64,000 nt of DNA from Kofleriaceae bacterium (GTDB lineage Bacteria; Myxococcota_A; Polyangia; Haliangiales; Haliangiaceae), in contig JBFWSC010000003.1 in NCBI GenBank assembly GCA_050248555.1, positions 25,724 through 89,723 on the forward strand, read 5' to 3'. Position numbers and translations under genes: made by a program. Below the pieces are notes generated by a model that was given only the letters and a program-made list of their open reading frames with translations, was not told the origin of the DNA and made no database searches. This document shows, in pieces, positions 43,022 to 43,108 of this stretch. Within the stretch, counting starts at the first letter, position 1. Each line of letters opens with the position of its first letter.

Positions 43022-43108
43022 CGTGCTCCGCATCGGAGCACGAGCTGCTCGATCGTGACGCAGGCGTGAGCAGGCGCGAGGCCCGGTGCTCCGGCGTGGA
43101 GCACCGGG
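43022..43108. promoter_or_regulatory. Two related perfect hairpins (GTGCTCCG-N4/5-GGAGCAC cores) in the 158-nt leader upstream of the MVP-like gene.
   Basis: Hairpin 1 is cGTGCTCCG/catc/CGGAGCACg at 43022-43042. Hairpin 2 is cccGGTGCTCC/ggcgt/GGAGCACCggg at 43082-43108. Both share the same half-site. No U-tract follows either. Confidence 0.45.

Follow-up and report, generated by a model that had tools for sequence, protein, structure and literature searches.

Genes and inverted repeats upstream of the MVP gene

The window, that is the whole 64-kb stretch of DNA analysed here, contains on its + strand a gene (43165..45495) for a 776-aa homologue of the vault protein MVP, in which the domains PF11978 MVP_shoulder (8e-16) and PF17795 Vault_3 (1e-8) are found. 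The protein is identical to one from the Kofleriaceae MAG GCA_964617845.1; 4573 homologues were retrieved at E<=1e-30, mostly from Kofleriaceae/Myxococcota MAGs, and 38 homologues show no variation in M1 and the N-terminus. Upstream, on the same strand, lies an ORF for a 98-aa Gly/Ser-rich lipoprotein (42709..43005, signal MKAKALVLALLFAAAC), which is outside the element described below. Its Gly/Ser-rich linker is encoded by an 18-nt periodic repeat at 42812-42883 (GGCAGCGGCAGC...), and its start overlaps the stop of an upstream WXXGXW/TIG ORF (ATGA, 42709-42712). On the other side the MVP gene adjoins a Ser/Thr protein kinase gene (45586-46737, + strand), as it also does in the related loci L166, L167 and L168.

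The 160-nt spacer between the lipoprotein stop and the MVP ATG holds two perfect inverted repeats, in the position given by the original prediction. Hairpin 1 (43020-43044, CTCGTGCTCCG-CAT-CGGAGCACGAG) and hairpin 2 (43082-43108, CCCGGTGCTCC-GGCGT-GGAGCACCGGG) each form 11/11 perfect pairs and have GTGCTCC...GGAGCAC in common; their stems are 37 nt apart (about 40 nt had been predicted) and their centres 63 bp apart. The absence of a U-tract, also predicted, is borne out, since there is no T-run 3' of 43044 or 43108, and a scan of the + strand for terminators was negative. Chance occurrence, which the original prediction had itself raised against the motif, was checked: GTGCTCC-N3-9-GGAGCAC is found twice in the window against 0.00 expected (100 shuffles), and the 64 kb contain no other perfect hairpin whose stem has 11 bp or more and whose loop measures 3-8 nt (two observed, shuffle mean 0.55). 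This confirms that the hairpins are real and not a product of chance. When two mismatches are allowed, the GTGCTCC/GGAGCAC motif shows no excess in the window over the two hairpins, so that no local regulon emerges.

The spacer contains more than the two hairpins: a degenerate third copy of the motif, a third, imperfect hairpin and a -24/-12 promoter-like element had all been missed. We refer to the three copies of the motif as sites 1 to 3. Site 1, the distal dyad (43020..43044), corresponds to hairpin 1 and begins 15 nt after the lipoprotein stop; its core, TGCTCC-GCATC-GGAGCA, occupies 43024-43040 and is centred at 43032. Site 2, the middle degenerate dyad (43046..43062, TGCTCGATCGTGACGCA), reads TGCTCG-ATCGT-GACGCA, is centred at 43054, 22 bp from site 1, and has two mismatches to TGCKCC-N5-GGMGCA (instance L007 -111). 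Site 3, the proximal dyad (43082..43108), corresponds to hairpin 2, with the core TGCTCC-GGCGT-GGAGCA at 43087-43103 and its centre at 43095. A lineage-specific insertion of 22 nt in the spacer (43059..43080, boundaries ambiguous) consists of two units of about 11 nt, GCAGGCGTGA / GCAGGCGCGAG. The third inverted repeat (43110..43157), an imperfect one taken from the MFE fold, adjoins hairpin 2 and is formed by TCCACGCG...CGCGTGGA with an inner GCGACC/GGTCGC stem; its 3' arm holds the -24/-12 element and reaches a Shine-Dalgarno-like GGAGGAG. Its outer arms are invariant in seven relatives and are hence uninformative, and one unpaired change is present in L005/L087.

Conservation of the dyads in MVP orthologues

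DNA of orthologues was collected by exact look-up, by a scan of species-representative genomes and by a scan of metagenome contigs, giving a comparison set of about 117 non-redundant MVP-upstream regions from Kofleriaceae/Haliangiales. The conserved unit in these regions is a 17-bp dyad, TGCKCC-N5-GGMGCA, which is present in 2-4 tandem copies per locus, 65-135 bp 5' of the ATG, with neighbouring dyads mostly 18-19 or 22-24 bp apart. At up to one mismatch, 47 dyads are found in 16.3 kb of MVP-upstream sequence versus 11 in the remaining 421 kb of the same loci, an enrichment of about 110-fold. The search for a regulon that had been proposed for the whole genome covered the 64-kb window plus about 0.9 Mb of related loci, where the motif clusters only 5' of MVP orthologues; no dyad clusters occur elsewhere in the window, in three loci extended by +/-10 kb or in the loci of the MVP paralogues.

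Close relatives (88-94% protein identity) keep the cores of the hairpins and the sequence down to the ATG. In orthologues at 60-75% identity, where the spacers are otherwise unalignable, 2-4 tandem dyads are still present. The 17-mer of site 1, TGCTCCGCATCGGAGCA, is identical in L005, L009, L058, L087, L088 and L098; the extension of this site by a 4-bp flank, to 11 bp, is limited to the window and L088. The counterpart of site 2 in L005/L087, TGCTCGAACGTGGCGCA, has one mismatch and is closer to the consensus than the copy in the window. The dyads and the promoter element stay with the MVP gene in L005/L006, where the upstream gene is an unrelated ORF of 420-441 aa, and in L167, where a divergently transcribed kinase lies upstream; because it is kept where the upstream gene differs, the element belongs to the MVP gene and not to the lipoprotein operon.

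Conservation extends to the letters of the half-sites and stops short of their pairing. A logo built from 72 instances shows very little variation in the left half TGCTCC, whose fourth base is T in 57/72, G in 11/72 and A in 3/72. The partner of this position is A or C about equally often, so that 38/72 instances have a Watson-Crick pair and 30/72 a non-pair. All six core pairs are complementary in 21 of 128 instances (16%), U·C-type mismatches are frequent among the dyad copies, and outside the 6-nt arms the flanks pair about as often as expected by chance. A·C mismatches are more numerous than G·U on the sense strand, and covariation over the three predicted hairpins in seven close relatives is not above that of shuffled controls. 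The dyad is conserved as a sequence with an N5 spacing, and not as base pairing, the pattern expected from selection by a dimeric DNA-binding protein.

The family motif does not account for the perfect flank extensions of 4-5 bp on both hairpins of the window. Chance may have produced them, or the recognised sequence may be longer than the dyad, or they may serve the adjoining lipoprotein operon in a secondary role as RNA. The perfect 11-bp stems are peculiar to this lineage, in which the core of 6+6 bp has been lengthened, and the family-wide function does not require them.

A putative sigma-54 promoter close to the start codon

A pair of GG and GC dinucleotides 10 nt apart is the hallmark of sigma-54 promoters. 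Such a pair is present on the + strand in TGGTCGCGAACGTGCA (43134..43149; GG at 43135-36, GC at 43147-48, 10 nt between them), a predicted sigma-54 promoter with its end 16 nt before the ATG; in the whole window, both strands included, TGG-N9-TGCA is matched only four times, this element being one of the four. The longest invariant intergenic block in the close clade is TGGTCGCGAACGTGCAGCGC, and from TGG to GCGC inclusive seven relatives are 100% identical. At the homologous position, many orthologues carry a canonical CGGCAC-N5/6-TTGCA 13-16 nt before the ATG; in L050, L055, L082, L109, L118, L133, L136 and L158-160 the canonical element lies exactly 13 nt 5' of the ATG and there is no Shine-Dalgarno sequence; elements placed in this way include CGGCACTCGCGTTGCA, CGGCACTGCGCTTGCT and CGGCACCTGCGTTGCA. 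Scored against the extended consensus yTGGCACGr-N3-TTGCw, the window agrees at 7/12 positions outside GG/GC and orthologues at 9-10/12, as in the canonical example CGGCACTCGCGTTGCA.

GG-N10-GC located 10-30 nt before the ATG (observed at 12-26 nt, almost always at 12-19 nt) is found in 52/117 regions versus 3.0% of 12,332 control anchors (binomial p = 5e-47, an overstated significance, as related genomes are treated as independent). Dyads and promoter tend to occur together: 40 regions have both, 6 dyads only, 12 the promoter only and 59 neither (odds ratio 33, Fisher p = 2e-14, again overstated because relatedness is ignored).

Two groups of loci depart from this pattern. In a sub-clade composed of L010-L014, L036, L054, L060, L064, L089, L119, L143 and L157, the region 12-14 nt before the ATG reads TGGAC-N6-CTTGAA, with A in place of the nearly invariant C at -12, and the upstream dyads and an SD-like GGAGGG are kept; a reading of TGGAC...TTGAA as an ECF- or sigma-70-type promoter was rejected, since its -10 would overlap the start codon. 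Loci L015, L019, L027, L037, L038, L051, L058, L096 and L115 have no -24/-12 element and carry GGTTGCAC/GGTTGCGC 30-60 nt before the ATG, followed by GCATC about 17-20 nt downstream, a combination that may be another type of promoter. GCATC is also found about 7 nt 5' of the -24 TGG in several loci of the sigma-54 type, and it is the spacer of the distal dyad. Scans for sigma-70 promoters and terminators in the window region and in L005 returned nothing relevant.

The Shine-Dalgarno-like GGAGGAG of the window (43156..43162, + strand), separated from the ATG by 2 nt, spans the predicted sigma-54 start and would be truncated by it, in conflict with the model proposed below. G-rich SD-like runs are found in many orthologues, also in those with a -24/-12 element, and their retention suggests that at least some transcripts start further upstream and would carry the hairpins as RNA. 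Read-through or a second upstream promoter may also feed the MVP gene.

Spacing and helical phase

Measured from its centre, site 1 lies 103.5 bp upstream of the -24 GG (about -128 from the predicted start), site 2 81.5 bp (about -106) and site 3 40.5 bp (about -65). Across the orthologues the distances from dyad centre to -24 GG cluster at 40.5, 51.5, 59.5-62.5, 70-74, 81-81.5 and 92-93 bp, with a periodicity of about 10.5 bp (Rayleigh R = 0.66, p ~ 2e-13 with related genomes treated as independent) and nothing at a period of 12. The distance of site 3 is the modal one, as exactly 40.5 bp is found in 15/40 loci and 38.5-42.5 bp in 20/40.

The spacing between sites 1 and 3 is 40-41 bp in L004, L005, L009, L087 and L088, 52 bp in L006 and 63 bp in the window. 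These steps correspond to zero, one (L006) or two (window) inserted units of 11 nt, and the helical phase is kept; in the window, the 22-nt insertion shifts sites 1 and 2 two helical turns away from site 3. The dyads are tandem elements at a fixed position that co-occur with the -24/-12 element and vary in distance by steps of one helical turn. Steps of 11 nt matter for proteins bound to one face of the duplex and not for independent RNA hairpins, which argues against an RNA reading. Judged by this phasing, the dyads would present themselves on one face of the helix as the enhancer sites of a bacterial enhancer-binding protein (bEBP) do, and their number and place (three at about -65 to -128 from the predicted start, 2-4 in orthologues) are consistent with upstream activating sites (UAS), which are dyad-symmetric, usually several in number and more than 50 bp upstream of the sigma-54 promoter.

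Proposed mechanism and alternative explanations

We propose that the three dyads probably serve as UAS sites for a bEBP, an NtrC-type AAA+ activator, which would drive a sigma-54 promoter and produce a near-leaderless MVP transcript. Of three dyad DNA sites, hairpin 1 would then be the distal and hairpin 2 the proximal one. Dimers of the bEBP, all on the same face of the helix, would occupy the dyads at about -128, -106 and -65, assemble into the active oligomer and contact the sigma-54 RNA polymerase waiting in a closed complex at TGGTCGCGAACGTGCA; ATP hydrolysis would open the promoter. Transcription would start about 11-12 nt past the -12 C, near 43159-43161, and a start at about 43160 leaves a predicted leader of about 5 nt or less in the window. 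In the lineages with the canonical 13-nt distance the leader would be 1-2 nt, making the mRNA essentially leaderless. We infer that the dyad-binding protein is a bEBP and that sigma-54 uses the -24/-12 element. The suggestion of tandem operator sites for a dimeric regulator, made in the original prediction, is the option that the comparison of orthologues supports, with the modification that they would be activator sites (UAS) of a sigma-54 promoter rather than classical operators.

The genome possesses sigma-54 machinery, represented by an FHA-type bEBP in the window and by a second bEBP beside rtcB. The former (6661-8028, + strand), with the motifs GETGTGK and GSFTGA and an N-terminal FHA domain (a phospho-threonine reader), is the only sigma-54 activator in the window; it is 36 kb off and nothing ties it to the dyads. 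A circuit from the kinase through the FHA-bEBP to MVP is conceivable, as a speculation. Searching for GAFTGA and Walker A in six frames of all loci, and in gene calls over +/-10 kb in three genomes, we found no bEBP gene near the MVP gene within +/-10 kb (three genomes) or +/-2.5 kb (60 loci). Several points count against the proposed mechanism: this lack of an adjacent bEBP gene, the -24/-12 match of the window at 7/12 positions, the TTGAA sub-clade, the conflict with the Shine-Dalgarno-like sequence, the flank extensions of both hairpins and the position of site 3 (about -65), many classical enhancer sites being more distant from the promoter.

Dyad symmetry, tandem copies and conservation would suit any dimeric DNA-binding protein, and the sites might be bound by a repressor or a class-I activator acting on a sigma-70- or ECF-type promoter, the likeness to -24/-12 then being due, for example, to a further binding site. 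We regard this as unlikely. The lack of an adjacent bEBP gene speaks for it, as do the SD-like sequence 3' of the -12, which argues for a start further upstream, and the dyad-bearing loci L037, L038, L051 and L058, which have GGTTGCAC...GCATC instead of a -24/-12 element. However, no sigma-70-type promoter was detected in the window or in L005, in many lineages the element 12-19 nt from the ATG is a canonical sigma-54 match and it goes closely with the dyads, and for a promoter so near the ATG no type other than -24/-12 is possible. Somewhat less probable still is a function of the repeats as RNA, whether in a long MVP 5' leader or in read-through RNA, where stem-loops could be stabilising, protein-binding or, with the third hairpin, translation-modulating; the original prediction had offered an attenuator, a processing site or stabilising stem-loops. 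The folding that it called for did give a very stable structure (43003-43170, -100.7 kcal/mol, z = -5.6), but the opposite strand folds equally well (z = -5.75). In both hairpins the stems reach 11 perfect pairs through different, mutually complementary flanks, the 3' arm of the third hairpin enters GGAGGAG, and in L004 one pair at the edge of hairpin 1 is changed from G-C to C-G. Against these points stand the half-sites, which across the family are conserved without complementarity, with U·C-type mismatches in the middle of the 6-bp stem, the prevalence of A·C over G·U, the covariation in seven relatives, which does not exceed that of shuffles, and the 11-nt steps of the spacer indels. An Rfam search of 42000-44000 (E<=10) gave only chance-level miRNA/sRNA matches, the best at E 0.08-0.1 and far below gathering scores, and in the window the promoter of such an RNA would have to be within the lipoprotein ORF.

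It is improbable that the hairpins are terminators without a U-tract, or stem-loops that protect the 3' end of the WXXGXW/TIG-lipoprotein operon, although such a role could be a secondary use of site 1 here: hairpin 1 begins 15 nt past the lipoprotein stop, site 1 has its longest stems (11 and 13 bp) in the window and L088, the loci with the closest stop, and L004 has a separate hairpin directly after the same stop. The negative terminator scan and the lack of a T-run speak against termination, as does the retention of the element beside unrelated upstream genes and, in L167, a divergent kinase; the two independent intrinsic terminators considered in the original prediction are not supported, on the same grounds, the missing U-tract and an element that follows the MVP gene when the upstream gene differs. 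In L017 and L094, moreover, the upstream stop abuts a site and the stem is not extended. A general rule that the extension of the stem tracks the nearness of the upstream stop was considered and rejected, as it is true for the window and L088 only and fails in L017 and L094. Finally, two similar GC-rich palindromes close together in an intergenic region recall dispersed REP- or MITE-like elements with no gene-specific role, which are recognised by many copies in unrelated intergenic regions. The window holds no more copies, even at two mismatches, and the position relative to one gene is kept across dozens of genomes, which makes a dispersed palindrome extremely improbable.

MVP paralogues and significance

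MVP paralogues are found in two other genetic contexts. A second paralogue (~51% identity) is located directly 3' of rtcB (L063 1250-2470) in the same genome (L063 1-4960, contig CAZUAR010000003), and the same rtcB-MVP arrangement occurs in L062, L065, L067, L068, L071, L072 and L076. In L063 a divergent GAFTGA sigma-54 activator, RtcR-like, is present upstream, and a -24/-12 element, TGGTTCGCGAGCTGCA, lies 16 nt before the rtcB ATG. The literature searched yielded no report of a vault-protein homologue inside an RNA-repair operon. A third group of paralogues (~47% identity; L079 1361-2349, L080 1224-2497, L081 1342-2463, L083 1549-2499) is preceded by a same-strand array of 10-16 tRNA genes (ARAGORN, Rfam) that ends 2-40 nt before the MVP start.

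We found nothing on the regulation or function of bacterial MVP homologues in the literature searched, and a 2019 preprint on these proteins makes no mention of promoters, sigma factors or gene neighbourhoods (10.1101/872010). A conserved sigma-54 promoter, as predicted here, together with a defined enhancer motif would offer a first way into the regulation of bacterial vault-protein homologues; with the motif one can search for the activator, define the regulon and infer the inducing signal. The rtcR-rtcB operon and the paralogues next to tRNA arrays link bacterial vault-protein genes to RNA metabolism. A far-reaching picture can be drawn from these elements, in which one MVP paralogue would owe its expression, as an essentially leaderless mRNA, to a bEBP acting through the TGCTCC-N5-GGAGCA enhancer, a second would be driven by RtcR together with RtcB, and a third would be co-transcribed with the array of 10-16 tRNA genes, all forming a sigma-54 stress regulon of Haliangiales/Kofleriaceae, while the 11-bp stems of the window would double as RNA 3'-end hairpins of the lipoprotein operon, the same sequence being used as dsDNA and as RNA. 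That all these parts hold jointly we consider unlikely.

Comparison with known regulatory systems

NtrC (GlnG) binds enhancer sites with the consensus TGCACC-N5-GGTGCA upstream of sigma-54 promoters such as glnAp2. The MVP dyad is similar to this box in its length of 17 bp, in its 6-nt half-sites of the form TGC.../...GCA and in its 5-nt spacer, and in both systems multiple copies precede a -24/-12 promoter, predicted in the case of MVP, in a helix-face-dependent manner. The systems differ in the fourth base of each half-site (TGCTCC/TGCGCC in MVP, TGCACC in NtrC), in the distance to the promoter, the MVP dyads being nearer (-65 to -128), and in the target, a vault-protein homologue versus a nitrogen-assimilation gene. 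The NtrC box is closest in shape, but an identification of the dyad with it was rejected, as A occupies the left fourth base in only 3/72 instances.

The conserved pattern also differs from the Rho-independent and 'I-shaped' GC-rich terminators of high-GC bacteria; these share with the MVP element GC-rich perfect stems just past a stop codon, whereas the MVP element has no U-tract, is conserved with the downstream gene and keeps its sequence rather than its pairing.

A further comparison is provided by the RtcR-rtcBA system, in that the rtcB-linked MVP paralogue of the same genome follows rtcB in an operon that has a similar -24/-12 element and a divergent bEBP in front of it (L063). The presence of this element beside a second MVP gene suggests that sigma-54 control of vault-protein homologues is recurrent. 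RtcR of the paralogous locus was rejected as the regulator of the window's MVP gene: the rtcR-rtcB intergenic region has no TGCTCC dyads, so that a different activator is expected.

Within the same phylum, a validated case is PexR of Myxococcus xanthus, whose binding sites are three interrupted palindromes in tandem, 5' of a sigma-54 promoter (PMC12754779). The three tandem dyads 5' of the putative sigma-54 promoter of MVP resemble this arrangement and the three-UAS arrangement of NorR (PMC12754779), and PexR, like the activator of our model, is presumed to act as dimers that oligomerise (PMC12754779). Leaderless transcripts of myxobacteria are discussed in the same work (PMC12754779). The PexR motif, CACCG-N6-CGGTG, is a different one, and pexR adjoins its target ahpC (PMC12754779), whereas no bEBP gene is adjacent to MVP; moreover, PexR has been validated experimentally and the MVP locus is known from sequence. 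As a control element, the arrangement predicted here would be an ordinary representative of a well-understood class, that of a bEBP enhancer with a sigma-54 promoter, within which the recognition motif and the target are new.
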